Shown: in pieces, positions 48,782 to 64,000 of the stretch | Layout of the letters: each line of letters opens with the position of its first letter | Position numbering within the stretch: the stretch's first letter is position 1 | From: Candidatus Poseidoniaceae archaeon | GTDB taxonomy: Archaea; Thermoplasmatota; Poseidoniia; Poseidoniales; Poseidoniaceae | Direction of reading: 5' to 3' | Assembly (NCBI GenBank): GCA_965662895.1 | Contig: CBFIJH010000008.1 | Coordinates: 27,852 to 91,851, forward strand | DNA length: 64,000 bases | Position numbers and translations under genes: made by a program | The notes under the pieces: model-generated | What the model saw: the letters and a program-made list of their open reading frames with translations, nothing else | Database searches by the model: none | What the model was told of the DNA's origin: nothing

Positions 48782-51556
48782 TTGGAAAACCTAGACAATG
48801 ACTTCGGAAATATCCGATTCTCTGGAACTTTACGCCCCTCACAGGATGCAGCCGTATCAATTATCAAACCACAACTCGATTTGAACGAAAAAAGGCTCCA
48901 CATCGTCGCACCACCTGGTTCAGGAAAGACGGTTCTTGGTCTCTACGTTTGGTCCGATCTGGTTCGAGTTCCTACGCTTGTCCTTTCTCCAAATTCAGCG
49001 ATTCAGGCACAGTGGGCTGCTCGAACTTCTTTGTTCGATCTTGATGGAAAAGAAGACCAAATCAGTACTGACCCCAAGAATCCAGGATTGTTAACATGCC
49101 TAACATATCAATCTGTAACCATGCCCAAGCGAGGCGGAGAAGACCTCGATGTGACGGCTATCGAACTCTGGGCAGAAGTGCTCGTAACAAAAGCAGAAGC
49201 AGATACGAATGAAGCCGCATTGCTGTGGATTGCGGATTTGAAGCGAACGAATCCTGATTATTTTGATGAGCGTTTAGGCATCTATAGAAAAAAGGTTCGT
49301 GACGATTTTGCAAAGAATGGAAACGCTTTATGGACGCTCCATGATTCAGCAAGAAAGACCTTGACGAGACTCAAAAACAAGGGCATTGGAATGATTATTC
49401 TGGATGAATGTCATCACTTGTTGCATCATTGGGGAAGAGTCCTATCTGAATTAAAAGAATTCTTCGATGATCCAATTGTTCTTGGTCTCACCGCAACACC
49501 TCCCGATTTCTCAGCGGTGAAGCAAAAGAACGCTGACCGCTATCACGATTTCTTTGGTGAAATCGACTATGAAGTGCCAATCCCTGCGCTCGTTCGAGAT
49601 GCAAATCTTGCTCCATATCAGGATCTTTGCTATTTCGTCCGACCTGCTGAACATGAAGTCGAGTACATTGCGAAGGTCGATGATGAATTTGATGAAATTC
49701 TCGCTGAATTGGAACAGCCTCCTGCTTACGAAAACGGAGTACCTCGCTTACAAGATTGGGTGTATCAACAACTCAATGACAAAGTTTTGCCGGGAGGTAA
49801 GTCAGTCACGTGGACGACATATGCCAAACGAACCGGAGGCTTCAGTGACGCTGCGAGAATGTATCTCAAAAATTGCAAGATGAGCCTTCCACCAGATGTA
49901 CCCTCGTTCAAGGGTTCCGAATGGGGCCGGATGGCATATCTTCGTCTCGTCCTCGATCGTTACGTGCGGCATGGCCTACGACGATCTGAATTAAAAGAGG
50001 ACCATAAGAAGGGAGAGATTTTAACAAACCGACTTCAATTGCTTGGAATGCAAATCACAGAAACTGGGATTCGCCCATGTGCATCACCAGTTGGAAGAAT
50101 AATGGCCTATGCGGCAAGCAAAATTGAGGCACTTTCTGAGATCATTTCCACTGAAATGCAATCTCTCGGACAAGACATTCGTGCTGTTATCGTCACCGAC
50201 TATGAAAAGACCTCTGCAACAGCCTTGGTCGAAGGCGTCATGGACGATGAAGCAGGCGGTGCGATTGCGGCGTTCAGGTCCCTTGTGAAATGCGATTCAG
50301 GTGACATTCTTGACCCTATTCTCATGACGGGCAGTACGGTCTTGGTCGATGACGATCTTTCTGAACGATTTCTCGAAGCCGCTCGAGCTTGGATTGCTGA
50401 ACGTGATCTGGACATCGAATTAAGGGCGCGTCATGAAGAAACCTACCACGTCATAGTTGGTCGAGGAAAGGATTGGATTCCTCGATACTACTCCCTTATG
50501 ATTACCGAATTCTTCCAACAAGGACTAACAAAGTGTTTGATTGGCACGCGTGGACTTCTGGGCGAAGGCTGGGATGCATCGAAGATCAACGTACTCGTTG
50601 ATTTGACAACTGTTACGACGAGCATGAGCATTAATCAACTGCGAGGTCGCTCGATGCGATTGGACAAGGATTGGCCTGAAAAAGTAGCCAACAATTGGGA
50701 TGTTGTTTGTTTTGCGGATGAATTTACCCATGGTTACAAAGATTATGTCCGATTTGAGAAGAAACACAAACAACTGTACGGTGTTTGTGATGATGGAGCG
50801 ATCGAAAAAGGCGTAGGACACGTTCATGCAGCCTTCACTGAAGCTGAGCCTGAGGGAATCAGCGAAGGAATGAATTTGTTCAATGAAGAAATGCTTATGC
50901 GTTCGAGAAATCGTGAGAAAGCAAGAGATTTATGGGGCATTGGACAACCATTCAGTGCACATCCAAGAGCTGCAATCGAGGCGCAGGCAAACGAAGATAA
51001 CTTTGGGCTTGGGTCAGGATTCAAGTTTTCATCGAAAGAAATTTGGAGTGGACAATCACTCGTGCAGGCGATGGCATTGGTCGTTTCAAACAGTCTGATC
51101 CACACAGGACATATTTCGAACACGTGTCGAGCATCGGGAGGCGATCGTGGGGGTGGTTGGATGAGGATGCACCTTACCAACAGCACTGAAGAGGAATCCA
51201 AGATATTCTCTGAAGCGCTTGGAGAAGTCCTCGGGCCTTTGGAAAACCCGAGGTACGTAATATCTCGACATTCGCGTTTCTTCAACGAGACTTGGTTGAC
51301 CAAAATTCTACCAGAGGTTTTGGCGAAATATTTCCGCCCAATCGAGTCCAAACTTGTGATGTATCACTCTGTTCCAAAGATATTAGCTGGCAAACGTGCA
51401 GATGCAGATGTGTTCTTGCAGTATTGGCAGGAATTCGTCAGTCCAGCGGAATTGTTCTACGCGCACAGTGCTGAAGGTAAACTACGTGTTGAAGCCATTC
51501 GAAAGCAAAATCTCGGACCAAAGAATGCAACCAAGGAAAAGCAGATTTTCCTATGA
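48782..51556 (+). CDS. SF2 DExH helicase (ResIII/XPB-like) with long C-terminal extension
   Basis: APPGSGKT, DECHH, GLTATP, EGWD, QLRGRSMR; TTG start after SD GAGGAGG. Confidence 0.88.
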   Translation: MENLDNDFGNIRFSGTLRPSQDAAVSIIKPQLDLNEKRLHIVAPPGSGKTVLGLYVWSDLVRVPTLVLSPNSAIQAQWAARTSLFDLDGKEDQISTDPKNPGLLTCLTYQSVTMPKRGGEDLDVTAIELWAEVLVTKAEADTNEAALLWIADLKRTNPDYFDERLGIYRKKVRDDFAKNGNALWTLHDSARKTLTRLKNKGIGMIILDECHHLLHHWGRVLSELKEFFDDPIVLGLTATPPDFSAVKQKNADRYHDFFGEIDYEVPIPALVRDANLAPYQDLCYFVRPAEHEVEYIAKVDDEFDEILAELEQPPAYENGVPRLQDWVYQQLNDKVLPGGKSVTWTTYAKRTGGFSDAARMYLKNCKMSLPPDVPSFKGSEWGRMAYLRLVLDRYVRHGLRRSELKEDHKKGEILTNRLQLLGMQITETGIRPCASPVGRIMAYAASKIEALSEIISTEMQSLGQDIRAVIVTDYEKTSATALVEGVMDDEAGGAIAAFRSLVKCDSGDILDPILMTGSTVLVDDDLSERFLEAARAWIAERDLDIELRARHEETYHVIVGRGKDWIPRYYSLMITEFFQQGLTKCLIGTRGLLGEGWDASKINVLVDLTTVTTSMSINQLRGRSMRLDKDWPEKVANNWDVVCFADEFTHGYKDYVRFEKKHKQLYGVCDDGAIEKGVGHVHAAFTEAEPEGISEGMNLFNEEMLMRSRNREKARDLWGIGQPFSAHPRAAIEAQANEDNFGLGSGFKFSSKEIWSGQSLVQAMALVVSNSLIHTGHISNTCRASGGDRGGGWMRMHLTNSTEEESKIFSEALGEVLGPLENPRYVISRHSRFFNETWLTKILPEVLAKYFRPIESKLVMYHSVPKILAGKRADADVFLQYWQEFVSPAELFYAHSAEGKLRVEAIRKQNLGPKNATKEKQIFL

Positions 51557-52261
51557 GCAACTCGGACAGGTGATTTTGTCACCTTTGCAAGCAGAACAGA
51601 ATCGGTTTCGACAACTAAAACATCGAAAGTCAAACACCGTTACGGGTGTTGAGCATGTCGAATTTGCACACACCTCAGTGGCTTGAGTCGATGATTCAGG
51701 CATCGAAGACCAAAATGCAGCATTTGAAGTCGTGCTTGCTTGAGGGGCCGGAGTATGAGATCCCACAATGGTTTGAGCGCTTACTTGAACACCCCCCATA
51801 TTGAGAACTTCTTGCACGTAGAGATTTGAAAAAAATGGTTTGGATGCTATATCACCACGATTGAAAAACGATGCATAGGTTGCAGCAGCTTGCTCAACAC
51901 TCATTCCACTCAAATCACTCACCTGCATTTTCCGAATGAGTTGGTCATACCGATAATTCCCATTGGAGCGCGAATTGGAATGAGAGCGATTCGCTTGAGG
52001 ATGCATCGTACTGCCCCCCGCAAATCCTTGCTGGCCAATTCCAACCGTGAATCCTTCTTGCAATGTAAATGTCTTAAAAATCAAATGTGCTAGACCTGTG
52101 AATAATAATGTAAAGATCCCGAGGAAGCAGACAAAATCGCTCTCTGGAAACAAAGAGGGGAGCGCGATTGCAATGAGATACAACGCACCCAACCTTACTC
52201 TCTTTTTTTCTGCCACTGCCAACACCACACCCCAAGAGGTTGGCCATGGCGCCGTCTCCAA
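51551..52261 (-). CDS. Membrane protein with C-terminal Cys-rich (AN1-like) zinc finger
   Basis: Two TM helices; C..C...FRC..C..RFC..C...C..C. Start uncertain. Confidence 0.6.
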   Translation of the reverse strand: METAPWPTSWGVVLAVAEKKRVRLGALYLIAIALPSLFPESDFVCFLGIFTLLFTGLAHLIFKTFTLQEGFTVGIGQQGFAGGSTMHPQANRSHSNSRSNGNYRYDQLIRKMQVSDLSGMSVEQAAATYASFFNRGDIASKPFFSNLYVQEVLNMGGVQVSAQTIVGSHTPAPQASTTSNAAFWSSMPESSTQATEVCANSTCSTPVTVFDFRCFSCRNRFCSACKGDKITCPSCS

Positions 52262-52368
52262 GCGCCATGGCCGATTGGGTCTTAACCTACTTGCCCAAGC
52301 AAGTGCATGTCATTGTCCGAAGACTCCATTGGAGACATGTTACACTTTTACTGTCGGTCTATAAACAA

Positions 52369-53667
52369 TTATTCCCGAACAGCGATTCGTAACGTTGGTT
52401 CTTGTTTCCCGGCGAATGTCGCAGAGGACGGAACTTGACGATGAATGCCCATTCTCCTCTCAAGCTCAAGATGGGAAGCAGAAAAAGACGTCTTTGTGTC
52501 CACTTGATGCCCATAGAGGCCAATCGGTTGAAGTTCATCCTGCCAATCTGAATCCTCGTCCATGGCATTCGTGATTCGAATCCAATCGTGCTCTCGTTCC
52601 TTCAGAATCGCTGCACGTTTCCTCATTTTGTAGGAAGAGAATAGTTTCACAACTTGAGACCGGGGGAAAGCAAGCGGAGAGAGCATGAGGATACGATCTC
52701 CTTGTTGCCAAAACGAGCATGGTCCTAATTTCTCTTCATTGATCATCTCCAAGGCAGTCTCCAATGCTTCTTGACCAGAACCCCATGCACGAGGTAGCCA
52801 CAACATGATGACTGAGCGGTCTTTTGTCCCGGGTACGTGCGTGCTTGCCTCCACCATGTACTGTTGCATTGTTCGAGTTTCAACAACTTTTTTTCGAGAC
52901 TTTGATTTCTTCTTTTTGGCCTTCTTTTTCAGCCTTCGAGCCCGTTTGGGAATTATTTGAGATGAATTAATGCGTGGGATGTCTTCAAGCAATTCCTTCA
53001 ACGGTTTCTTCAGATGTTCCAAGGTAAGAACCGTACATTGGTAACCCGTCGTACCATGAATCGAACCTGGTAAACGAATAATTCGTCGCGAATCTGCTGT
53101 GACTCGCTCATCAACATCGAATCCTTTCTCTATGACTTGAGTAAGCAGTTGTTTACGTGATGCTCGAACTGTTTCTTCTCGCTCTTTAGGATCTTCAATA
53201 GCGAACTTTTCTCTATCCAAATCCAAGTAAAACAGATGAAACCCTTTGCTGCCCGAAAACGAACAACTCAGAAACTCCATGGAAGTATCAGAAGCGAGGT
53301 AATCGTGGAGATCGATGGCAATGGTTCTTGCTTTTTCGAGATTCTTCAGACTCAGGGGCGCCACATCGATGTCGAAGACAATGAGATGGTCAAGGAGAAT
53401 CGGATGTGGTCGCTCTTTGTCACGAAGACGTGGCAGATCGATTGGATCGAGCCACCTCGAGGTTGAGATGTAGAGATCGCTAACCACATCCTTACCGATG
53501 GCTTTGGCTAATGTCTGGTGGTTTCGAATACGTCGACGAGCGGTTACCCATTTTCCTTCAGTAGTTCTCCACCGGTACGAATGCTGATTCGGAGATGGAA
53601 TCCATGAGAAATCAATTGGATTCTGAGCATAGTGAGCGAGAAGTTCCTTGCTTCTCTCTTCGCTCAT
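52369..53667 (-). CDS. Archaeo-eukaryotic primase (PriS-like) with Lys-rich linker and extra C-terminal domain
   Basis: DLYIS..W.DP; LIVFDIDV (DxD); FSGSKGFH; D..VT.D..RIIRLPGSIH. Confidence 0.85.
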   Translation of the reverse strand: MSEERSKELLAHYAQNPIDFSWIPSPNQHSYRWRTTEGKWVTARRRIRNHQTLAKAIGKDVVSDLYISTSRWLDPIDLPRLRDKERPHPILLDHLIVFDIDVAPLSLKNLEKARTIAIDLHDYLASDTSMEFLSCSFSGSKGFHLFYLDLDREKFAIEDPKEREETVRASRKQLLTQVIEKGFDVDERVTADSRRIIRLPGSIHGTTGYQCTVLTLEHLKKPLKELLEDIPRINSSQIIPKRARRLKKKAKKKKSKSRKKVVETRTMQQYMVEASTHVPGTKDRSVIMLWLPRAWGSGQEALETALEMINEEKLGPCSFWQQGDRILMLSPLAFPRSQVVKLFSSYKMRKRAAILKEREHDWIRITNAMDEDSDWQDELQPIGLYGHQVDTKTSFSASHLELERRMGIHRQVPSSATFAGKQEPTLRIAVRE

Positions 53668-53668
53668 A

Positions 53669-54598
53669 TCACTCGTTTCTCAATCCGGCTTTCTTCAAGG
53701 CTTCGAGTAGGACTGCACCAAGTTCAGATGGATCTTTTGCACATGCGATTCCTGCTGCTTCAAAGGCTTCGAATTTTTCTTCAGCAGTTCCTTTTCCTCC
53801 AGAGATGATAGCACCTGCGTGCCCCATTCGCTTACCTGGAGGAGCCGTTGCACCTGCGACGAATCCAACGATTGGTTTCGAGACGTTCTCTTTGGCCCAT
53901 GCAGCAGCTTCTTGCTCCGCATTTCCACCGATTTCACCAATCATAACGATGGCTTCTGTTTGCGAATCCGCTTCGAAGGCTGCAAGACAATCAATGAATC
54001 CAGTTCCATTGACGGGGTCGCCACCAATTCCCACACAGGTCGATTGCCCTTCACCAATGCTCATGGTTTGAGCAACCGCTTCATACGTTAGAGTACCCGA
54101 TTTTGAAACGATTCCAATTCGGCCCTTGGCATGAATATGACCTGGCATGATTCCAATCTTCGCACCGCCATTCTCGCCTGGAGTGATGATTCCAGGGCAA
54201 TTCGGCCCAATCAATCGTACTCCGGGGCGGTTCTCGACAAAGGCAACAGCCTTGACCATGTCAAGTGTGGGAATTCCTTCTGTAATACAGACTACAACGC
54301 CCTCGCCTTTGACTTGGTCAAAGGCATCTGCTGCTTCCATGATGGCTTCCCCAGCAAACGGTGGAGGAACGTAGATGACGGTTGCATCCGCGTCTGTTGC
54401 TTCAATCGCTTCGAACATTGAATTCCAAACTGGGTAGGAGCTTCCTTGCAATTCAACGGTTTGACCGCCTTTTCCTGGTGTACATCCACCGACAATGTTT
54501 GTACCATACTCGACCATCTTATCAGCATGGAACATACCTTGCCTTCCTGTGATTCCTTGTACCAATACCTTCGCGTTCTCTTCAATCCAAATTCCCAT
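53669..54598 (-). CDS. sucD: Succinyl-CoA synthetase alpha subunit
   Basis: VQGITG, IGPNCPG, SGTLTYE, RMGHAGA. Confidence 0.97.
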
Positions 54599-55806
54599 CA
54601 AGCCTCACCTCCAATCAACTGTACAATCTTTTGAGCACCTTCGGCCAAGTCATCAGCGGGATGGATGTTGAGCGTAGAGGCGGCGAGAATCGCCTTGCCT
54701 TCATCGACATTCGTACCAGCAAGTCGTACGACGAGCGGTACGTTGAGATCGAGTGCTTCAGTTGCAGCGATAACCCCACGAGCGATAATGTCGCATCGCA
54801 TGATTCCACCAAAGATGTTGACGAGAATTCCTTTGACATTCGGGTCTTCGAGAATGATTGAGAACGCTGTCTTGACTTGCTCCTCATTGGCTCCGCCGCC
54901 AACGTCAAGGAAGTTTGCAGGTTCTCCACCGTACAACTTGATGACGTCCATGGTAGCCATGGCAAGACCCGCCCCATTGACCAAACAACCGATGTTTCCA
55001 TCAAGTTTGACGTACGAGAGACCTGTTTCCTTGGCACGTATTTCAACGTCTTCTTCTTCGGAAAGGTCTCGAATTTCGTCCCAATTCTTGTGACGGAACT
55101 CGGCATTCTCATCAAAACTAACCTTTGCATCTAGTGCGACCATGTCGTCGTCCCCTGTTCGGACCAATGGGTTGATTTCGACCATAGTACAGTCCTCCTC
55201 AAGGAACAACTTGTACAATGATCGGAGCATCTTTCCGAATGACTTGTGTGCTGCACCGGAGAGTCCGAGCGCAAGACCAAGGTCACGGACTTGGTAACCC
55301 ATCAGACCTGCATTGGGGTCAACATTGACCTTGTGCAATAGTTCTGGAGTTTCTTCAGCGACCTCTTCAATGTCCATTCCACCTTCGGTAGAGGCCATGA
55401 TGAGAACTGATTTTTGCTCACGATCGACAAGCAATGCGAGGTAATATTCGTGAGCGATGTCACAACCCGACTCAACGTAAAGATGGTTCACAAGTTTTCC
55501 TTCTTCACCTGTTTGCTTCGTAACAAGAACATGCCCAAGAATATTGGTGGCAAAGGTTTGGACATCTTCACGAGAGAAGGCGATTTTCACTCCACCCTCC
55601 ATCACCAAGTCGCCAGAATTCTGGTCGTACAAATTTCCTTTTCCTCGACCACCTGCATGGATTTGTGATTTGACGGCTACAACCTTTGACTGGAGGGCAT
55701 CATAAGCACTCAACGCTTCTTCAACAGTCTTGCAGTGGACGCCCTCAAGTACCGTTACTCCGTGTGATTTGAACAGTGCTTTTCCTTGATATTCGTGGAT
55801 GTTCAT
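54598..55806 (-). CDS. sucC: Succinyl-CoA synthetase beta subunit
   Basis: [36 protein letters not shown]. Confidence 0.97.
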
Positions 55807-55921
55807 TGGTTCACCAAATGCTGCGAGCAAAAGAACGCCTTTGAACTGTGCGGACGAAGAGCCTCGACCTACCATCGCGTGTACACTACAACTTGAAAAA
55901 GAAAACTACAGTGCGTCAAGC

Positions 55922-56926
55922 ATGCAGGTCGTGGTTCTCGCAGGTGGTTTTGGATCACGATTGCGCCCATGGACCTACAACATTCCAAAACCGATTTTGC
56001 CGATGTTGGATAAAACACTGCTTGAACACGTTGTGGAAGTCGTACCGAGCGATATCGTCGATGAAGTTGTTGTTGCTGGCGGATACAAAGTCGAAGACAT
56101 TGAACAATACTTTCAATCAGCAGACGTTCCGTACGATGTCACTGTAGTCAAAGAAAAGGAACCTCTGGGGACAGGAGGAGCGCTCGGGAACTGCAGTGAT
56201 GTAGTCTCGGACAACTTCATCTGCCTTAACGGCGACATTATTTCCTCGCTCAATATGCAAGTTGGTCTCGATTTGCATCAGTTGAACGGAGGAATAGGAA
56301 CATTAGCGCTCTGGGAAGTTGAAGATCCAACACGATTTGGTATCGTTGGTTTGGATGAGAAGAAACGCATAACCAGGTTCAAAGAAAAACCAAAACCAGA
56401 AGAAGTGTTTTCGAATCTCATCAACGCAGGATCGTATCTTTTCGAGGATTCAATTTTTGATTACATTCCAAAAGGAAAAAGTTCACTCGAACGCAACGTG
56501 TTTCCAATTCTTGCTGAGGAACGTCAACTCAACGGGTTCACCTTTGATGGATATTTCATCGATGCAGGAACTCCGAAGAGTTGGTCGCTTGGCGTGCAAG
56601 CGAGCATTGCCAACAAACGCTGGAAAAACGGGAGTAGAATCAACACAAATTGGTTCGCTGATGATTCTGTTCAAATCGATAAGAACAGTGAAATCGAACA
56701 TTCGATGCTTTCCACAGGCACGTTCGTTGAATCTGCGAGAATTACAAAATGCAGCCTCCTGAACGATGCCATCATCGGAAAGAACTCTGTCCTTAACGAA
56801 ACGCTCGTTGGTAGAAATGCGACCATCGGTTCGAATTGTTCACTGGATAATGTTGTCGTTGACCACGATTCTATCGTACCAGACAATACACATCTGTCCG
56901 ATACACAATGGCCTCCCGTTGTATGA
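55922..56926 (+). CDS. Sugar-phosphate nucleotidyltransferase (NDP-sugar synthase) with left-handed beta-helix tail
   Basis: VLAGGFGSRLRP...PKP, EPLGTGGA, NGD, EKP. Confidence 0.92.
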   Translation: MQVVVLAGGFGSRLRPWTYNIPKPILPMLDKTLLEHVVEVVPSDIVDEVVVAGGYKVEDIEQYFQSADVPYDVTVVKEKEPLGTGGALGNCSDVVSDNFICLNGDIISSLNMQVGLDLHQLNGGIGTLALWEVEDPTRFGIVGLDEKKRITRFKEKPKPEEVFSNLINAGSYLFEDSIFDYIPKGKSSLERNVFPILAEERQLNGFTFDGYFIDAGTPKSWSLGVQASIANKRWKNGSRINTNWFADDSVQIDKNSEIEHSMLSTGTFVESARITKCSLLNDAIIGKNSVLNETLVGRNATIGSNCSLDNVVVDHDSIVPDNTHLSDTQWPPVV

Positions 56927-56968
56927 ATAAATGGAAGATATCAAGAAGAATCAGGGACTGGGATTGCC

Positions 56969-57634
56969 ATGCAGCCGTTAATTGTCGTCAACTTCAAGAC
57001 CTATCCGACTGCTATGGGAGAGAAAGCTATCGAACTCGCCAAGGCGATGGAGCGTGCCTCAACCGAGCGCGTTCGGATGGTAGCAGTTGTCTCTGCTTTC
57101 GATCTTTACGCCGTCAAACAATCGGCTCCAAGTCTTGAAGTCTGGAGCCAGCACCTTGACCCGGTCGGGCAAGGATCTTTCACGGGATGGCTTCAACCAG
57201 ATAACGCTATAGAACGAGGCGCTCAGGGAACAATCATCAACCATGCGGAACACAAGGTTGACATTCATCATGTTGAAAATTTGATGAAACAACTACCAGA
57301 TAGTTTCCCGATTTGTGCTTGCGCTGCCAACGTCGATGAAGCAAACAAACTCGCAGAACTCGGACCGACATTCGTTGCTGTTGAACCACCTGAACTCATC
57401 GGAGGAGATGTCTCCGTGACGACAGCAGATCCTGCCATTGTTTCAGATACTGTTGATGCCGTCCGTTCCATTAATCCCAACGTACGTGTTCTTTGCGGAG
57501 CAGGTGTAAAAAATGGAAACGATGTACGTACAGCTGTCGAACTCGGCGCACATGGCGTCTTGCTTGCCTCAGGTGTTACAAAGGCAGAAAACCTTGATGA
57601 CGTTCTCAACAATCTCGTCGCTGGACTTGAGTAA
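56969..57634 (+). CDS. tpiA: Triosephosphate isomerase (archaeal type)
   Basis: VNFKTY, NHAEH, AVEPPELIG, LCGAGV, GVLLASG. Confidence 0.97.
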   Translation: MQPLIVVNFKTYPTAMGEKAIELAKAMERASTERVRMVAVVSAFDLYAVKQSAPSLEVWSQHLDPVGQGSFTGWLQPDNAIERGAQGTIINHAEHKVDIHHVENLMKQLPDSFPICACAANVDEANKLAELGPTFVAVEPPELIGGDVSVTTADPAIVSDTVDAVRSINPNVRVLCGAGVKNGNDVRTAVELGAHGVLLASGVTKAENLDDVLNNLVAGLE

Positions 57635-57648
57635 AGGGATGTGCAGAC

Positions 57649-58956
57649 ATGGCTCGGAAAACAAAACGTAAACCGGTTCGAATCGCCCACGAACTTTCAC
57701 GGAAACGACGTCGAGATATCGAAAAAGCACTGGCTGAACATGAGATTACAGATCGAGCAGAATGGGATCGAACATCAGAATGGAGCGATTGTCGGTTTTA
57801 TCGAAAGTTGGTCAAAAAAGGAACAATTCGAACAATTGACCTACCCTTGTTGGAGGTAAGTATAGGCGACCCATGGTCGACCTCAGTGACCATCATTCAT
57901 GGAAAACGTCCTGGTCCGACCATTACCATCCTTGGCGGAATGCATGGTGATGAACTCACAGGTCCTTCGGCTTGCACTCACCTTCTTAGTAAAGCGTTCA
58001 CAGATCCTGAGAAAGTACTCGATCCTGAAACACTTGCTGGAACGATCCGTATTGTTCCAGTTGTCAACATGCCGGGATATCGATCAAAATCCAGATACTT
58101 CCCGGATGGAAGGGATTTGAACCGAAACTTCCGAGGAAATCCAAAAGGTTCCTCAACACGAAGAGTCGCTGCCCAAGTCTGGAAATATTTGGTTGAAGAT
58201 TCGGACGCAATCATCGATTTGCATAGCGCAGGTAAGGGTCGCTCAAACATGCCACAACTTCGCGTTGATCTTGCCCATGCAGGTTCCAACATCCTGGCAA
58301 AAGCCTTCGGAATCGAAATTCTCCTCGATTCCAAACCACCAAAAGGGTCGCTTCGAAATCAAGCGAATTTGGAAGATATTCCTGCAATAACCTACGAAGG
58401 TGGTGGAGCGAATTGGTTGGACCAAGACTCTGTCAAAGTAGCGGTCCATGGAGTCATGAACGTCTTGAGAAAACTCAAGATGGTTCCTGGAAAACCTCAC
58501 AGGCCACGCTTCAGAATGCTTGCAAGCGGATCAACGTGGCTAAGAGCGGGCGAAGGAGGCCTGCTCGACCTCTTCGTTGATAGTGGTTCAATCATGAATG
58601 AAGGCGATGTTGTTGCCCGCATTTCAGATCCTGCAACGCCTGGACTTTCTGTTGATATTCTTGCACCAGAAGATGGATTGATGATTTGCATAGCAACCAA
58701 CCCATTCGTAGCTGCAGGAATGCCAGTTGGTCATTTCTTACCAATTTCGAAGCACATGTCCCTACTTGAAGAACAAGTTGACGGATTTGGACGATTTGTC
58801 ACCCAAGGTTCTCTCGATGAACCAGTATGGAGAGAAGAAGAAGAAATTGAAGTCGAAGTTCGAGGAGAATGGGATGGTGGTAGCGTCGACAGTGGTTGGC
58901 TTGAGGCTACTCTTGAAGAGGTCAATCGGGAAGAAAATACCGAAGAAGAAGCCTAA
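57649..58956 (+). CDS. Succinylglutamate desuccinylase/aspartoacylase family (M14-like) protein
   Basis: HGDE, DLNRNF, IDLHS, TYEGG; basic N-terminal and acidic C-terminal extensions. Confidence 0.88.
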   Translation: MARKTKRKPVRIAHELSRKRRRDIEKALAEHEITDRAEWDRTSEWSDCRFYRKLVKKGTIRTIDLPLLEVSIGDPWSTSVTIIHGKRPGPTITILGGMHGDELTGPSACTHLLSKAFTDPEKVLDPETLAGTIRIVPVVNMPGYRSKSRYFPDGRDLNRNFRGNPKGSSTRRVAAQVWKYLVEDSDAIIDLHSAGKGRSNMPQLRVDLAHAGSNILAKAFGIEILLDSKPPKGSLRNQANLEDIPAITYEGGGANWLDQDSVKVAVHGVMNVLRKLKMVPGKPHRPRFRMLASGSTWLRAGEGGLLDLFVDSGSIMNEGDVVARISDPATPGLSVDILAPEDGLMICIATNPFVAAGMPVGHFLPISKHMSLLEEQVDGFGRFVTQGSLDEPVWREEEEIEVEVRGEWDGGSVDSGWLEATLEEVNREENTEEEA

Positions 58957-58957
58957 G

Positions 58958-58997
58958 CAAAGGGTAGCGTCTGACAAGACCCACTGCAAGTCCTTTG
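58958..58997 (-). repeat. Island repeat element copy A (left half, minus orientation)
   Basis: Reverse complement CAAAGGACTTGCAGTGGGTCTTGTCAGACGCTAC matches 63767-63800 at 30/34. Confidence 0.85.
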
Positions 58998-59104
58998 AAT
59001 TTCGAATACCTGAGCAATGGCTATTCGGATAGACCCTCTGATAATGTCAACACAAATCTTTGCGTTTTACAAACATTAACTAAGGCAAATTGTTTGGTAC
59101 AGCT

Positions 59105-59623
59105 ATGCGTCACTTGATATTCATCCTAACGCTGTTGTCCTCATTTTCCTTTGCACAGATTGCCTCAGCACATGGAGGAGAAGAATCACCAGGATTGTCA
59201 AATATACAAGTTCTAATCATCTCGGGTGTTTCATCGCTTGTCTTTTTCATATTGTTTGTTGTCGTTAAGAAGTACGATGTAATTATGGCCCGATCCAGTC
59301 TATATTCGCTTGTTCTGTTTACTTCAACAGTGCATATTCTGCTTGGGTTAGATGAATCATTGTTAATCGTAGGCGGAGTAGGTGCCTTATCAGTCAGCTT
59401 TTTCCCTTTGGTTTCTAATTTCTCAAAAAGAATTTACCAAATAGCAGATTTTGCACTGGCATTGATAGTGCTATCAATGTTCATCGGCTATTTTGTTTAC
59501 AATCATGATTTGCACTACATTTTAGAGGATTATCTGGGGATCATAACAAAACTAATCGAATTGAGCATTTTATTCATACTTGCTAAACAACACATATTTG
59601 CAGGACAGAAAACAGGGGCTTGA
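59105..59623 (+). CDS. Membrane protein with signal-like N-terminus (AHGGEE) and about 5 TM helices
   Basis: Hydrophobic ORF with His residues in and near the TM segments. Confidence 0.65.
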   Translation: MRHLIFILTLLSSFSFAQIASAHGGEESPGLSNIQVLIISGVSSLVFFILFVVVKKYDVIMARSSLYSLVLFTSTVHILLGLDESLLIVGGVGALSVSFFPLVSNFSKRIYQIADFALALIVLSMFIGYFVYNHDLHYILEDYLGIITKLIELSILFILAKQHIFAGQKTGA

Positions 59624-59627
59624 GATA

Positions 59628-60122
59628 ATGAACATTAAATTTACCATATTGATAATATCGTTAATTTTGACTAACAGCCTTGCAGGTTGTCTATCGTCGG
59701 ATGAGGATGAATTAGATAAATTTCCATCGTTTAATCTAGTCGATGAACAAGGAAATACTCAAAATAAATCGATGTATGAAAACGGACCATTTGTTGCTTA
59801 TTTCTCCGCCTCTTGGTGTTCACACTGTAAACCTGTCCTAGGCGCCCTCGATGATATAATCCCTGAAGGCCAACTGGTTGTTTTTAACATAGAATCAAGA
59901 GAGCAATATAGCGATATGAACGATTGGAAAGACAGAATGGAATCGGAATTAGAAAGAGATTTATTTCATCCATTTATACACGCTCCGCCATTGGCACAAT
60001 CTTTGGAGGTATCAAAAATTCCAACTGTATTTTTTATCAATAGTGATGGGGAAATTGTACACAGACCCTCGGGATTAACAGATAAATCGATTTTAGAAGA
60101 TCAATGGAATTCTGTTTCTTAA
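59628..60122 (+). CDS. TlpA/thioredoxin-like lipoprotein
   Basis: Lipobox LAGC; FSASWCSHC; cis-Pro motif IPT. Confidence 0.85.
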   Translation: MNIKFTILIISLILTNSLAGCLSSDEDELDKFPSFNLVDEQGNTQNKSMYENGPFVAYFSASWCSHCKPVLGALDDIIPEGQLVVFNIESREQYSDMNDWKDRMESELERDLFHPFIHAPPLAQSLEVSKIPTVFFINSDGEIVHRPSGLTDKSILEDQWNSVS

Positions 60123-60167
60123 TCGCAAGACTGATTTATTCAACTATCTGACATCTGGTTTTTTTTG

Positions 60168-60245
60168 CAAAGGGGGCCCCCACTGCCTACCCTCAGTACA
60201 CTGGCTACCCATTGAATAGACGGTAGTTGAAAGGGGGACCCTTTG
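60168..60245 (+). repeat. Island repeat element copy B
   Basis: CAAAGGGGGCCCCC...GGGGGACCCTTTG termini; core GCTACCCATTGAA identical to 63190-63202 and at the same 29-nt distance from the 3' end. Confidence 0.8.
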
Positions 60246-60299
60246 TTCTCCCAAACATTGTAGAGGAATTCATATAACTTCATACGAGATGCAATCATC

Positions 60300-61220
60300 A
60301 TGGAAATAGAACCTCTTACCAAAAAATGGATGTATGCGGGAGGTGCGATTTTTCTTGTCTTAATTTTCCTATTTTCTGTTCTGAAGTTTGGTTTTTTTGG
60401 CTTTGATTTCAAAGAAGATGACTCAAGTAGTTATGATGAGGATGGGAATTATAATGATGGAAAATGGTTTACAGTTACTGAAGACTCAGAGAACATTTTT
60501 TCCGTTACAGTAACAGATACACCTCAGGGGAAAACGATATTGGATTGCAATCCATTTGGAACTGAATTGAGTAACCGTTTGTATCCATACCACTCGAATC
60601 TTGCAGAAACCCTCTACAAGCCTTTACCAAGTGAAATAGACCTTGATACCTTCGACCCTGATAATTACGATGAGAATAGCCTTCCACATCACGCCCACGG
60701 AGCAACCATAATCACTGGAATAGACCCTGTTTCCTTTTCATTCGGCAAAGTACTTCACAATTCACAAATAAGATGTACATTGACAGATGTTGGAAATGAG
60801 AAACCTACAATCCAAGTTACTATGATTCATGTTCCGATGGTGGAGGGTGAACACCAACCTATCGTGAATGTGTCAATGACAAAAGATTGGGATGGATTGA
60901 CAATTCATTGGGAAAGCCAAGAAACTACTCTCTGGCATGGTATGCATAAATTCTATCTTGGAGATTCAGATTACTCTACCACAGAAGTAACTGTAGATCA
61001 GTTCACTGGAAACTCTGGATCTGTATCGAATTCAGATTACATCGGTGGAATAACAGAAGGGACTTGGTTAATTGCAGTTTGGGGGGCTGAAGCAAATGGA
61101 TACATCGAGCATGTGACATGGTATCAGTTTGAATATACAGGAAAGGACTGTGAATATCCAGACACTTGTGAAACTCAAGTGGAATTGACACCATATGCGA
61201 CTTATTACTGGGCGAATTGA
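60300..61220 (+). CDS. Membrane-anchored extracellular acidic protein, unknown function
   Basis: N-terminal TM helix, beta-rich acidic body. Confidence 0.7.
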   Translation: MEIEPLTKKWMYAGGAIFLVLIFLFSVLKFGFFGFDFKEDDSSSYDEDGNYNDGKWFTVTEDSENIFSVTVTDTPQGKTILDCNPFGTELSNRLYPYHSNLAETLYKPLPSEIDLDTFDPDNYDENSLPHHAHGATIITGIDPVSFSFGKVLHNSQIRCTLTDVGNEKPTIQVTMIHVPMVEGEHQPIVNVSMTKDWDGLTIHWESQETTLWHGMHKFYLGDSDYSTTEVTVDQFTGNSGSVSNSDYIGGITEGTWLIAVWGAEANGYIEHVTWYQFEYTGKDCEYPDTCETQVELTPYATYYWAN

Positions 61221-61260
61221 CATTTTATTGATTTGTAACTCGGGTCATTATTAGCACCAA

Positions 61261-62049
61261 CTAACGAATGTGCCAAGGCTTTGAACCCCAATTGCTTGGA
61301 TGGGGGAAATTCTTCCTTTCAAGATGGAACTTGTTGCTTGTGACCCTGCTTACTGCATTTCCTTGCCACCTTCCGCCTCTCTTTCCTTTGATGCCTTGAC
61401 GGTTGAGAGAACGAGCAACACTTGCGGCAGACATTCCATTGGTGTCAATTTGCCATTTCATGTAATCAATATGGCTTTGTTCAATCCAATTTGGAATGAG
61501 CATTCCATTTGGATCTACATCCCATCCATAGATAGAATGAGTGAATTTCTTGTGGTCTGCTTTCAGTTGATTCATTCCAATCTGAGTTCTCTCTGAAATC
61601 AAACCTCTTTCCATTTCTGCCATCGCACCCATCATAGTGAGGAAGAAGCGACCCATTGGAGTGGATGTATCAACTGCTTCTCCATTCATGTCGACGATAT
61701 GGAATGAAATGTTTGCATCATTCAATTCATCTACTGTCGCGAGCATATCACTAACGAGTCTAAACATTCTGTCAAGTTTCATGGTTATTAGGTTGGAATA
61801 ATCGCCCGTCATCAATTTCCCCTTCAAGACTCTACCAACTGGTCTATCCCATATGGGAATGCCACCACTTACGCTTTTCTCAATCAGAATATCAGAATCA
61901 TCAAGTGTCAATCCTTTGAACTTGGCATATTCTTTGATTCTTCGTTTCTGAGCTGCTATGCTTACTCCCTCATCAACTTGTTTTTGTGAAGATACCCGAA
62001 TATATGCAACTGACTTCTTTGAATCCTTGATTGGTTTTGAAGTCAGCAT
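61261..62049 (-). CDS. Serine recombinase (resolvase catalytic domain plus short recombinase-type C-terminal domain)
   Basis: AYIRVSSQKQ (catalytic Ser), SGG...RP, KLDRMFR, TPMGRFF..MAEMER..ISERT, VARSLN..G....GG.W. Confidence 0.92.
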   Translation of the reverse strand: MLTSKPIKDSKKSVAYIRVSSQKQVDEGVSIAAQKRRIKEYAKFKGLTLDDSDILIEKSVSGGIPIWDRPVGRVLKGKLMTGDYSNLITMKLDRMFRLVSDMLATVDELNDANISFHIVDMNGEAVDTSTPMGRFFLTMMGAMAEMERGLISERTQIGMNQLKADHKKFTHSIYGWDVDPNGMLIPNWIEQSHIDYMKWQIDTNGMSAASVARSLNRQGIKGKRGGRWQGNAVSRVTSNKFHLERKNFPHPSNWGSKPWHIR

Positions 62050-62071
62050 AACTTCATATTGTTGTCTTTCT

Positions 62072-62079
62072 ATTTATAA
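62072..62079 (-). promoter_or_regulatory. Putative TATA box of the recombinase gene
   Basis: TTATAAAT on the minus strand, 23-30 nt upstream of the ATG (leaderless archaeal geometry). Confidence 0.45.
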
Positions 62080-62103
62080 CAAGGCATATTCCTTAAAATA
62101 ATG

Positions 62104-62226
62104 CTGTTGAAAGAATCAACAAATCGTTCTGCATAAGGTCGAACGGGTTGATGTAGAACACCGATTAAACAGGTTAATTGAATTGAATAGGCTGTTGAAA
62201 CACCCCTGTTGAATCCATCAACAAAT
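62104..62226. promoter_or_regulatory. Res-like site: two copies of the palindrome CTGTTGA-N5-TCAACAAAT plus half-sites
   Basis: 62104-62124 CTGTTGAAAGAATCAACAAAT and 62206-62226 CTGTTGAATCCATCAACAAAT; an extra CTGTTGAA at 62192. Confidence 0.6.
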
Positions 62227-62405
62227 AGCAATCGGAAATGTTGAATGGGTCAATCCGAATGCCCTCCCAACAGGTCTGACCTGTTTCATGGGCGTTCAGT
62301 CGGTCGGTTTTCTCGCTACCGAATCAACAGGCATCTCATGCGTGGGTGTCGGGTGGGCGTCGGGCCAAATAATAAGAAGGATAAATTCAATTTCAATTTG
62401 AGCGG

Positions 62406-63089
62406 ATGGCACAAAAATCTCGGAAAGACACGTTAGCACAAGCCAAAGATATGGGTTTAGAACTAAGTGCTGACGGTTCTGCTTGGATACCAATAAGCAA
62501 ATCAGATGTTGGTAACGCACACAAATCGGAGCAAAGACAGTTGAATGGCAAGGAATTAATGCATATCATAATACTCTCTTTTTCGGGATTGTTAGCTATT
62601 ATTGCTATTCTTGGTTCGTCATGGATTTCTGTTGATATTAGGGGCCATCACATCTCTGAATTTGGGTTGAATAGCGTACAAGGACAGGATGACTCTGAAA
62701 TATATGCTGAGACATGTGACGATTCAACAGGCGACTCATGTGCTGCTGCTAGAGCTGGACTAGTTGCAACAATAGGGCTATCAATTGGTATTTTCTTACT
62801 TCTTGTGTCCAGTATGGATATTTTTCTTCGAACCAAAGGATTTGCCCTTTTGTCTGTTATATCTCAATTTGGAAAGATAATAGTTCAGTTGGGGGCAGGG
62901 ATATCTATGATGTTAGGAATCGGATTCTGGCTAATTACTTGGGGTTTTTATTTCAATTCGTCAATGGAAGAATATGGTCACTTTGGAATCCATTTTTGGA
63001 TGGCTTTATTTGCTGCATTTTTAGGGTTGATATCTCCAATTTTGAACAGATTTGAATTTCCTGAGGACTTTGACGCTACAAGCAAATAG
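62406..63089 (+). CDS. 4-TM membrane protein with claudin/PMP22-like first loop
   Basis: TM1-SSW...FGL...C-x7-C-TM2, TM3, loop YGHFG..FW TM4. Confidence 0.6.
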   Translation: MAQKSRKDTLAQAKDMGLELSADGSAWIPISKSDVGNAHKSEQRQLNGKELMHIIILSFSGLLAIIAILGSSWISVDIRGHHISEFGLNSVQGQDDSEIYAETCDDSTGDSCAAARAGLVATIGLSIGIFLLLVSSMDIFLRTKGFALLSVISQFGKIIVQLGAGISMMLGIGFWLITWGFYFNSSMEEYGHFGIHFWMALFAAFLGLISPILNRFEFPEDFDATSK

Positions 63090-63115
63090 AGCAGAGATAA
63101 ATCGATACGGATAAG

Positions 63116-63145
63116 TTGCAAGGGGTTATCCCAAACCCCTTTGCA
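63116..63145. terminator. Hairpin between convergent genes (TGCAAGGGGTT-ATCCCA-AACCCCTTTGCA), related to the repeat termini
   Basis: Near-perfect inverted repeat downstream of the 63089 stop. Confidence 0.4.
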
Positions 63146-63160
63146 TTGTATTTTCCGATA

Positions 63161-63231
63161 CAAAGGGGATTCAGTGGGTCGATACTGACGCTACCCATTG
63201 AAGGAACGGGTCATCAGAGGGGTCCCCTCTG
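63161..63231 (+). repeat. Island repeat element copy C
   Basis: CAAAGGGGATTCAGTGGGTC...GACGCTACCCATTGAA...ACGGGT...CAGAGGGGTCCCCTCTG. Confidence 0.85.
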
Positions 63232-63232
63232 A

Positions 63233-63667
63233 TTAGTCTTCATCTTCTGAGGTCCAATCCCAATCTTCAACAGACAAAGACCCGAATCGAGATTCAAGAT
63301 AGAAAGATGTTGCAGCAGACATCATCCTGATGTCTTCATCCCCGCTCAACCCTCTCGTTATGTCATGATGATCAATCGGTGTATTTGATGTGAAGAATCT
63401 AATCGCTACCGTATTTTCCAAACCATCAAACTGCTCTAGATATGCTGGGAATTCTTTTGTGCTATTGGAGACAACATAACTCGGTTCCCAAGTGTCATCA
63501 AAGAGACCTCTCATGTAAGCAGTCAAACTTACGTCCGATTCATCTCGTTTCATTGCAGATAGGATGTTTTCATAGGTTTGTTCTTGGATTTTAAGATTCA
63601 ATTCGAACACACCATGTTCTTTGAGAAAATGATAGTCATCCCAATCTATTCCGCCCATTCTCGCCAT
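63233..63667 (-). CDS. Hypothetical acidic protein
   Basis: 144-aa ORF bounded on both sides by repeat copies. Confidence 0.6.
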   Translation of the reverse strand: MARMGGIDWDDYHFLKEHGVFELNLKIQEQTYENILSAMKRDESDVSLTAYMRGLFDDTWEPSYVVSNSTKEFPAYLEQFDGLENTVAIRFFTSNTPIDHHDITRGLSGDEDIRMMSAATSFYLESRFGSLSVEDWDWTSEDED

Positions 63668-63723
63668 GGTGTCTGGTGAGATTCTTTGATTATGACCTTG
63701 TTGGTGTGATTCAGTATAAGCAC

Positions 63724-63838
63724 CAAAGGGTCAATGCACAAACCCACTGATTCATTTTGACCACATCAGAGGGCTCGCAGTGGGTCTTTTCAGACGCTAC
63801 GGTCTGCTTGGACGGGTAAGCAAAGGGCACCCTCTGAT
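63724..63838. repeat. Island repeat copies D (degenerate, minus, 63724-63760) and E (63767-63836, plus), back to back
   Basis: E: ATCAGAGGG...CAGTGGGTC..CAGACGCTAC..GACGGGT..CAAAGGGCACCCTCTGAT. D: CAAAGGGT..ACAAACCCACTG..TTTGA, resembling copy A. Confidence 0.8.
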
Positions 63839-63885
63839 TGACATGTAGGAGGAATTGTCAATTAGAAGATATACAATGAGGAGTT

Positions 63886-64000
63886 ATGTCACAGGATGGA
63901 AAAGGAGACACGTCAACGCTGAGCATCCTCTTTCTTGCTGGAGCCATTGGTATTGGAATTTGGTTTCTCACAGTAGTATCGGACTTTATCGATTCAGGCG
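63886..64000 (+). CDS. Membrane protein, 5' part only (truncated by window end)
   Basis: SD GAGGAG; MSQDGKGDTSTLSILFLAGAIGIGIWFLTVVSDFIDSG... open to the window end. Confidence 0.55.
   Translation, partial: MSQDGKGDTSTLSILFLAGAIGIGIWFLTVVSDFIDSG

Follow-up and report, generated by a model that had tools for sequence, protein, structure and literature searches.

Probable TA-crossover sites bounding exchangeable gene modules in Poseidoniales islands, with a serine recombinase as the likely enzyme

Introduction

Integrons work through a tyrosine recombinase that acts on folded single strands, and Rci, the enzyme of the shufflon, is a tyrosine recombinase too. Serine recombinases cut at a central 2-bp dinucleotide between inverted half-sites, and the serine transposases (IS607; TnpX/TndX of Tn4451/Tn5397) mobilise a discrete element, which is left with the crossover dinucleotide on either side. 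The staphylococcal cassette chromosome (SCC, SCCmec) is inserted at the 3' end of a housekeeping gene and forms composite arrays, which include elements without a recombinase of their own. Here we report on palindromic repeats and a serine recombinase in the last 5 kb of a 64,000-nucleotide stretch of DNA (the window) from a Poseidoniaceae archaeon of Marine Group IIa (Marine Group II). We consider it probable that the repeats are TA-crossover sites bounding exchangeable modules, with the serine recombinase as the likely enzyme. The original prediction for this DNA had proposed cassette capture or shuffling at sites other than attC, which is supported by breakpoints at the central TA, by repeats that are not scattered and by variable gene order. 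Its alternative of a REP/MITE (repetitive extragenic palindrome/miniature inverted-repeat transposable element) family is not supported as stated, the genome having no HUH Y1 transposase (PF01797).

The array is like an integron in that small, mostly orphan modules stand in tandem between recombination sites, vary between strains and have one fixed exchange point; a circularised module would rebuild one complete site. It differs in having no IntI-type tyrosine recombinase at the array, the sole PF00589 gene of the genome lying on contig C20 (its IntI-specific domain was not examined). The sites are two-sided TA palindromes without a common single-strand fold, genes point both ways, modules invert, and the enzyme is likely to be of the serine type. 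Integrons have been reported in Archaea (10.1101/2022.02.06.479319), with no mention of Thermoplasmatota in the main text of that report.

Similarity to SCC lies in the serine chemistry, with CcrB giving the best NCBIfam similarity, in the position at the 3' end of a housekeeping gene, and in the presence of elements without their own recombinase. The enzyme described here is, however, half the size and scores 77 bits against a cut-off of 900, the modules measure 0.6-3.4 kb where SCC elements measure tens of kb, and palindromic TA sites occur at several loci per genome in an archaeal host. Invertases and resolvases (Hin/Gin, Tn3/gamma-delta) are comparable in their catalytic domain, their inverted half-sites around a 2-bp crossover and their capacity for inversion. 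Those systems, and shufflons, act on a fixed segment or a co-integrate, whereas the cargo here is exchangeable and differs between species; the C-terminal part of the enzyme is a partial 'Recombinase' domain and not the simple helix-turn-helix of invertases. The tycheposons of Prochlorococcus are likewise cargo elements that build islands in a streamlined and abundant marine microbe, lying side by side with a copy of the att site between them; nearly all of them (474 of 501) use tyrosine recombinases, and they insert at tRNA genes and carry replication modules (10.1101/2020.12.28.424599). The present locus, by contrast, has TA palindromes, much smaller modules, no tRNA within 14 kb (none found by ARAGORN in 50000-64000) and no replication genes that we could see. 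By the defining features compared here, the system belongs neither to integrons nor to SCC, and it likewise falls outside IS607, REP/RAYT, Xer/dif modules and tycheposons. No prior description of the sites, or of the role of this recombinase family, was found in open-access papers and preprints.

Results

The anatomy of the site was drawn from aligned copies of many genomes. The unit consists of a half-site, a central TA and an inverted half-site, which together form an imperfect palindrome of about 46-48 bp with two half-sites of about 23 nt. Half-sites are of two types: a long one, CAGTGGGTC-N6-GACGC before the TA, and a short one, CARAGGG before the TA, which is often extended. By eye, the extended short half aligns with the long half, the two having GGTC..CAGA.G. 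before the TA in common. All four pairings are seen (short-TA-short, long-TA-short, short-TA-long' and long-TA-long', the prime denoting the inverted half), including a bare 16-bp palindrome. Within the long half, the two conserved blocks are separated by a stretch of 6-8 nt that differs freely from copy to copy. A full element begins with an inner arm (CARAGGG, about 12 nt, CCCATTG) of which there are three variants, one being an inverted core-like copy; a spacer of about 17 nt, CAAAGGG and another 4 nt then lead to the long core and the TA. Beyond the TA lies CCCTYTG, often with a further 14 nt or so and the short palindrome CARAGGG-N2-CCCTYTG. The element is therefore larger and more modular than the consensus first given for it, and the 3' hairpin of that consensus is one of several short palindromes that have no single common fold.

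Folding was assessed on RNA and on DNA. The consensus RNA fold of 23 copies (RNAalifold) has an energy of -4.36 kcal/mol with a covariation term of +0.27, and one of its eight pairs shows a compensatory change. A structured RNA was rejected on this lack of covariation and of any fitting Rfam family, since at E <= 1 the best match was rivX, which at E 0.38 and 17.8 bits (cut-off 100) was taken as chance. Single-strand DNA folds gave z-scores from -0.9 to -4.5, with values of -4.49 for site C and -3.33 for site F, while A, B and E stay between -0.9 and -1.7; the structures differ from copy to copy, with no common fold. This absence of a conserved fold implies conservation of the primary sequence itself, as expected for DNA that is bound by protein. 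A TGACAA/TTGTCA complement beside the core spacer fails across variants and was dropped.

All five elements first proposed (A to E) are present in the window, and a sixth copy, F, had not been listed. Site A is full length (58958-59040(-)), with the short half-site CAAAGGG next to the upstream gene, its TA at 58965-58966, an inverted long core at 58967-58986 and an inner arm reaching 59040; it is 88.6% identical over 70 nt to a copy at the end of contig C11. Site B (60168-60245(+), crossover TA 60206-60207) is diverged. Site F (about 62243-62318(+)) comprises an inner arm, a variant of the long core at 62297-62316 and a TA at 62317-62318; it lies 268 nt ahead of the start codon (ATG) of the recombinase gene, and its right half-site is not the usual CCCTYTG. 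Site C (63119-63231(+)) has an inner-arm hairpin at 63119-63143, a long core at 63172-63191, a TA at 63192-63193 and an outer arm at 63194-63231, which ends 1 nt short of the stop of a minus-strand open reading frame (ORF). The original D and E belong to one site (63724-63836(+)), in which D is the inner arm and is itself an inverted core-like copy, followed by a long core at 63778-63797, a TA at 63798-63799 and an outer arm at 63800-63836. B and D (63724-63766) are genuine but degenerate, and B escapes a profile built from the 23 copies.

The repeats are confined to a small part of the genome. Four matches to the core CAGTGGGTC-N6-GACGCTAC lie in the window, all past 58957, where 0.07 would be expected and none of 100 shuffled sequences reached four; exact matches are at 58964(-), 63172(+) and 63778(+), and one with 3 mismatches, at 62297(+), is element F. 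The window forms the final 64 kb of contig C8, and on this contig the 23-copy profile finds no match at E <= 1 until position 86805 (58954 in the window); the absence of copies from the preceding 58 kb, as first noticed, thus holds. Across the whole assembly (1.86 Mb in 26 contigs, 92% complete) the profile gives 11 matches at E <= 0.0032. All of them belong to a small number of island pieces, namely the final 5 kb of C8, the end of C11 and the beginnings of three contigs (C19, C24 and C5), together with an internal position, C5:67854. Stringent core half-sites show the same pattern, all nine lying within 5,035 nt of a contig end, and the repeats are therefore not dispersed genome-wide. The 7-mer CARAGGG/CCCTYTG by itself is not enriched, with 365 occurrences in the genome, or about 0.2 per kb, against a chance level of about 0.24 per kb by our own arithmetic.

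The sites divide the island into five modules of 0.6-2.1 kb: c1 (58967-60205), c2 (60208-62316), c3 (62319-63191), c4 (63194-63797) and c5 (63800-64000, cut by the contig end). Modules found in other species at 85-99% identity lose their similarity exactly at the TA. G005, a different species whose housekeeping DNA is about 80% identical, and the metagenome contig L252 both carry module c2 at 97.7% identity over 2116-2118 nt; the similarity stops at 60206 and at 62320/62322, and the c2 copies in L252 and at a further locus, L042, begin at 60206. For c5, which is 99% identical in G002 (contig C49) and 85% in G046 (C39), the identity with G002 begins right after the TA; the left neighbour is a short half-site in G002 but a long core in the window. 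A similar TA-bounded pattern is seen for c5 in G046, for the left end of c3 behind other left half-sites in G051 and G049, and for site F in G017 and G003. Module c1 is present from site to site in G021 (C35) at 87% identity, and G041 (C33) has only its first gene, at 90%. The junction partners have 2-7 nt in common, which is too little for homologous recombination or for chimeras of k-mer assembly. Elsewhere, a 3.2-kb module stands at the centre of a perfect 23+TA+23 palindrome (G054:C5), a 1.36-kb one-gene module has perfect inverted ends (G088), and the modules in loci L125 and L126 have inverted ends with a TA on both sides.

Population data point to the same positions. Logan contigs from four runs of four studies (X1, X2, X9 and X15) were mapped to 57500-64000. 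Pieces ending at site A do so at 58966 (X9, X15) or 58969 (X1, X2) and continue differently, so that there are three different continuations after the TA downstream of the housekeeping gene; in X1 an inverted core of the F type follows, and in X9 and X15 sequence of the outer-arm type. All four runs have pieces that begin at the TA of B (60206) and at that of C (63192), and after the TA of F the sequence of X15 runs into a B-type inverted core. A joint between 63192 and 63800 on opposite strands, with 2 letters in common, is present in X2 (side of 59 letters) and X1 (side of 25), and in these contigs c4 lies in the opposite orientation next to c5, TA to TA. The same junction position recurs in independent metagenome-assembled genomes (MAGs) and in four studies. 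Breakpoints fall on the repeats, at base resolution on their central TA. Differences in contig depth (c2 above the upstream flank, c3 below it, c1 uncovered in X9) were not used, since contig depths cannot rank parts and a lack of cover is no proof of absence.

Gene order at this position is not invariant: the loci of relatives vary, the four metagenomes differ, and one module is inverted. The island begins 1 nt past the TAA stop of its conserved left flank, an AstE/AspA-family gene (57649-58956(+); succinylglutamate desuccinylase/aspartoacylase-like; Pfam PF24827, 1.4e-33) for which 36 of 37 genomes of the genus gave a match. Both this position of copy A and the compositional shift that the original prediction placed there are borne out, the G+C content falling from 0.478 to 0.402 at the first element (0.464-0.495 in 5-kb windows upstream). 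Downstream of the AstE-family gene, the loci of 20 relatives comprise six that are empty and others with different content. Twelve of the 20 rejoin DNA homologous to the end of C11, six of them within about 10-70 nt and without a site. Two relatives (G009, G013) carry a bare short-TA-short palindrome directly after the AstE stop. In the present genome the AstE stop is followed by short-TA-long', an island of at least 6.7 kb and then long-TA-short on C11, with the same 23-nt core at both ends.

The core is widespread in the order. Allowing up to 2 mismatches, a 17-base core occurs in 37 of 41 relatives from three families, with 96 matches against 6 for the reversed control; for at least 23 of these 96, the start of the contig is no more than 250 nt away. 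A 14-base pattern with 2 mismatches was unspecific, the reversed control giving similar numbers, and only its rows with 0-1 mismatch were used; in these, the better assemblies have sites at several loci per genome, about six in a genome of three contigs (G088). The exact core pattern was also met in 86 stretches of IMG/VR, a number near chance by our own arithmetic; none of 80 matches in the loci read carries the flanking CANNGGG, and we therefore take the IMG/VR matches as chance. A viral origin was rejected, the 306-aa product of c2 having no IMG/VR relative and the best IMG/VR relative of the recombinase being 38% identical. That relative is encoded on a contig of 5,072 bp (L135), a size close to that of the Charybdis elements, circular DNAs of 4.6 kb reported to integrate in Poseidoniales (10.1101/2025.08.03.668216). 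No link to Charybdis elements was found in the accessible part of that preprint.

A serine recombinase is the sole recurrent mobile-DNA enzyme in the arrays, with seven members in 7 of about 60 clustered island loci. The expected arrangement of one- or two-gene units between elements, around a serine recombinase, is found in the window, where the gene lies at the end of module c2 (61261-62049(-), 262 aa). Its product has an N-terminal resolvase catalytic domain (PF00239, 1.4e-30, 106.7 bits against a cut-off of 23.3) followed by a partial 'Recombinase' domain (PF07508, 4.4e-5). R18, V19 and S20 are invariant in five homologues, and S20 is the putative nucleophile. The closest solved catalytic domains are those of DNA invertase and gamma-delta/Tn3 resolvase (1.8e-14 to 1e-6) and that of the TP901-1 integrase. 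In NCBIfam the best model is CcrB, which aligns over positions 7-247 of its 542 and scores 77.4 bits where the cut-off is 900, with CcrC at 47 bits against 900 and CcrA at 29.5 against 700. The family comprises 880 clusters at E <= 1e-10; those listed are almost all 255-265 aa long and lie mostly on contigs of 1-5 kb. The short length is therefore native, and the gene sits in badly assembling DNA, which could explain why it is missed in MAGs.

The recombinase gene is often found beside a site. Of 13 loci inspected, scanning identified seven in which a TA-long' site precedes the start codon by 91-269 nt, and an eighth (L054) was recognised by eye. In a metagenome linkage set of 80 loci, 67 of which have at least 300 nt of upstream sequence, a site lies 90-400 nt upstream in 31 of the 67, at fixed distances of 264-270, 155-156, 276, 287 and 393-399 nt; the site variants track the identity classes of the recombinase. 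A near-identical recombinase module stands behind seven different left neighbours, and every joint is at the TA. Other candidate enzymes are scarce: DDE_3 (PF13358), IS110 and the TnpB zinc ribbon (PF07282) were absent from five genomes, of which one is a single contig (among DDE families the search covered DDE_3), Pfam shows no transposase among 10 module proteins, and no tyrosine recombinase (PF00589) lies in the 5-kb island.

Several observations on the recombinase and its surroundings stand beside these results. Inverted TGTTGA ... TCAACA pairs occur in several copies between the recombinase start and F (62100-62330), one of them just past the TA of F, and may be a recombinase operator or accessory binding sites. 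Outside the window, the very start of contig C12 of the same genome (22-186) encodes a fragment matching recombinase residues 209-261, which suggests a second, unassembled island. A metagenome contig (L264:1810-3792) carries two diverged recombinases of the family back to back with a TA-long' site between them. In other genera, the recombinase, sometimes a pseudogene, adjoins DNA methylase genes (L116, L117 and L119, in G058:C3, G088:C3 and G149:C15), and the G058 copy lies beside type I restriction-modification genes, as read from ORF starts.

Genes within the modules point in both directions. Module c1 encodes a membrane protein without a Pfam family (59105-59623(+)) and a thioredoxin-like lipoprotein assigned by Pfam (59628-60122(+)). 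Copies of the latter gene (59673-60124) at 78-79% DNA identity lie elsewhere in three relatives (G001:C235, G021:C111, G041:C30), and it may have a chromosomal paralogue. Module c2 holds a 306-aa ORF without a family (60300-61220(+)), the recombinase and the region upstream of the latter; c3 encodes a 227-aa orphan membrane protein (62406-63089(+)), c4 a 144-aa orphan (63233-63667(-)), and in c5 a frame starts with an ATG at 63886(+) and is still open at the window's edge, its visible part being below the 40-aa limit for ORFs. Sites abut stop codons with a gap of 0-1 nt at the AstE-family gene (58954-58966) and at the minus-strand ORF of c4 (63225-63235), and the modules are packed tight against coding ends. 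Overall, modules measure 0.6-3.4 kb, hold one to four genes and have a half-site at each end. Cargo with Pfam families among the 10 module proteins includes an AspBHI/Mrr-type restriction endonuclease, a TetR regulator with a short-chain dehydrogenase, an HNH protein, an aldo-keto reductase and a DNA methylase, and modules may often carry defence genes.

Discussion

Our analysis leads us to regard the repeats, with considerable confidence, as sites of site-specific recombination with a TA crossover. On this reading strand exchange takes place at the central TA. Modules with a half-site at each end abut one another through a single TA, so that successive insertion, excision and inversion build and reshuffle the array; in the present genome the array lies directly after the stop codon of the housekeeping gene. 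A palindromic TA would permit joining either way, in agreement with the inverted module. As to the catalyst, the 262-aa serine recombinase family has, in our judgement, a little more in its favour than against it, and this role is suggested by linkage and by the geometry of the sites. The module-borne enzyme, of about 262 aa, would then also move modules without a recombinase gene in trans, by way of circular intermediates. In its fullest form, on which we hold an evenly balanced view, the proposal is that Poseidoniales possess a serine-recombinase counterpart of the integron. Here, a dedicated family of recombinases about 262 aa long would take up, cut out and invert small self-expressed modules at TA palindromes of 46-48 bp and mobilise recombinase-less modules in trans, acting as the main engine of flexible islands and of the transfer of modules between species.

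A number of observations weigh against this proposal, most of them concerning the enzyme. The recombinase is far rarer than the sites: a search with one protein finds it in 3 of 41 relatives, and a profile search of 301 genomes from the order finds it in 38 (in 15 of the 66 that are of high quality), many of these being fragments or interrupted by stops. The genome assembled as one contig (G053) contains just one exact core and, of the recombinase, only a fragment. There is no site in 4 of the 13 inspected loci, and a fifth (L122) has a variant recognised only by eye; 36 of the 67 metagenome loci have no recognisable upstream site and show other contexts, some of them beside restriction-modification genes. 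In a small module, moreover, part of this proximity to a site is to be expected whatever the gene. Large serine integrases have a second half with a zinc ribbon and a coiled coil. The present protein lacks it, and may be unable to read half-sites of 23 nt. Four copies (L115, L253, L254 and L255) match the window only over 61271-62320, from the recombinase to the TA of F, with different genes past the stop and no visible site, and other recombination must therefore also act. In the population data, the side of the X1 joint measures only 25 letters, below the mapping tool's caution line, and each loose end is one contig with 18-24 letters.

The strongest rival, which we nevertheless regard as improbable, is that the modules are cargo-carrying MITE-like transposons with terminal inverted repeats of about 23-85 nt, mobilised by an unrecognised transposase that duplicates TA in the manner of IS630/Tc1-mariner elements, the recombinase being cargo. 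Module ends are indeed inverted with a TA on both sides, as in L125 and L126, the unoccupied site has one TA, most modules are without the recombinase, and the recombinase is rare in genomes. The free re-assortment of half-sites and the inversion between two sites are, however, products of a site-specific recombinase, and the searches for transposases described above were negative for the IS630 type, IS110 and the TnpB type in five genomes, for HUH enzymes in this genome and for any transposase among the 10 module proteins. Related families differ on further points. REP/REPIN systems with their RAYT transposases employ an HUH Y1 enzyme, and the present repeats are confined to island pieces. 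For IS607, the model scores 24.4 bits against a cut-off of 110, five genomes contain no TnpB partner, and the catalytic domain here is N-terminal; in contrast to IS607 and TnpX, most modules here are non-autonomous cargo.

Recombination at the sites by a XerA-like tyrosine recombinase of the host is a distinctly less likely account. XerC/D are proposed to act in this way on the pdif modules of Acinetobacter plasmids and on elements integrating at dif. The genome has one PF00589 gene, the sites are palindromic, and a host enzyme would account for sites with no recombinase nearby. Against it, partners here have only the TA in common and their flanks differ at once (GACGC or GAGGG on the left; CCC, CGG or GCG on the right), where archaeal dif consists of 11-bp inverted repeats around a 6-bp spacer (PMC2958812), and there are many sites at several loci in place of one per chromosome. 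We give marginally less credence still to the notion that the repeats are passive (REP-like, terminators, regulatory or structured RNA) and that the breakpoints stem from homologous recombination or assembly artefacts. The elements are intergenic, abut stops and can form hairpins, most stably at C and F, and contigs often end there; the 23 copies have, however, neither a common fold nor covariation, A, B and E fold weakly, and no Rfam family fits. The overlap of 2-7 nt at junctions is too short for such processes, and the junction position is the same in independent MAGs and in four studies. We thus retain TA-crossover sites acted on by a module-borne serine recombinase as our model for these islands.

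Marine Group II archaea are uncultured and abundant, and how they gain and lose genes is largely unknown. The sites described here offer a sequence-defined mechanism for their hypervariable islands and also explain why metagenome assemblies break at these islands. A compact recombinase with a short defined site, of which many natural variants exist, could serve as a genetic tool. A serine recombinase platform that acts on double-stranded palindromes would, if true, represent an independent invention of the integron strategy. It would then be the main builder of flexible-genome islands in one of the most abundant archaeal groups of the surface ocean.

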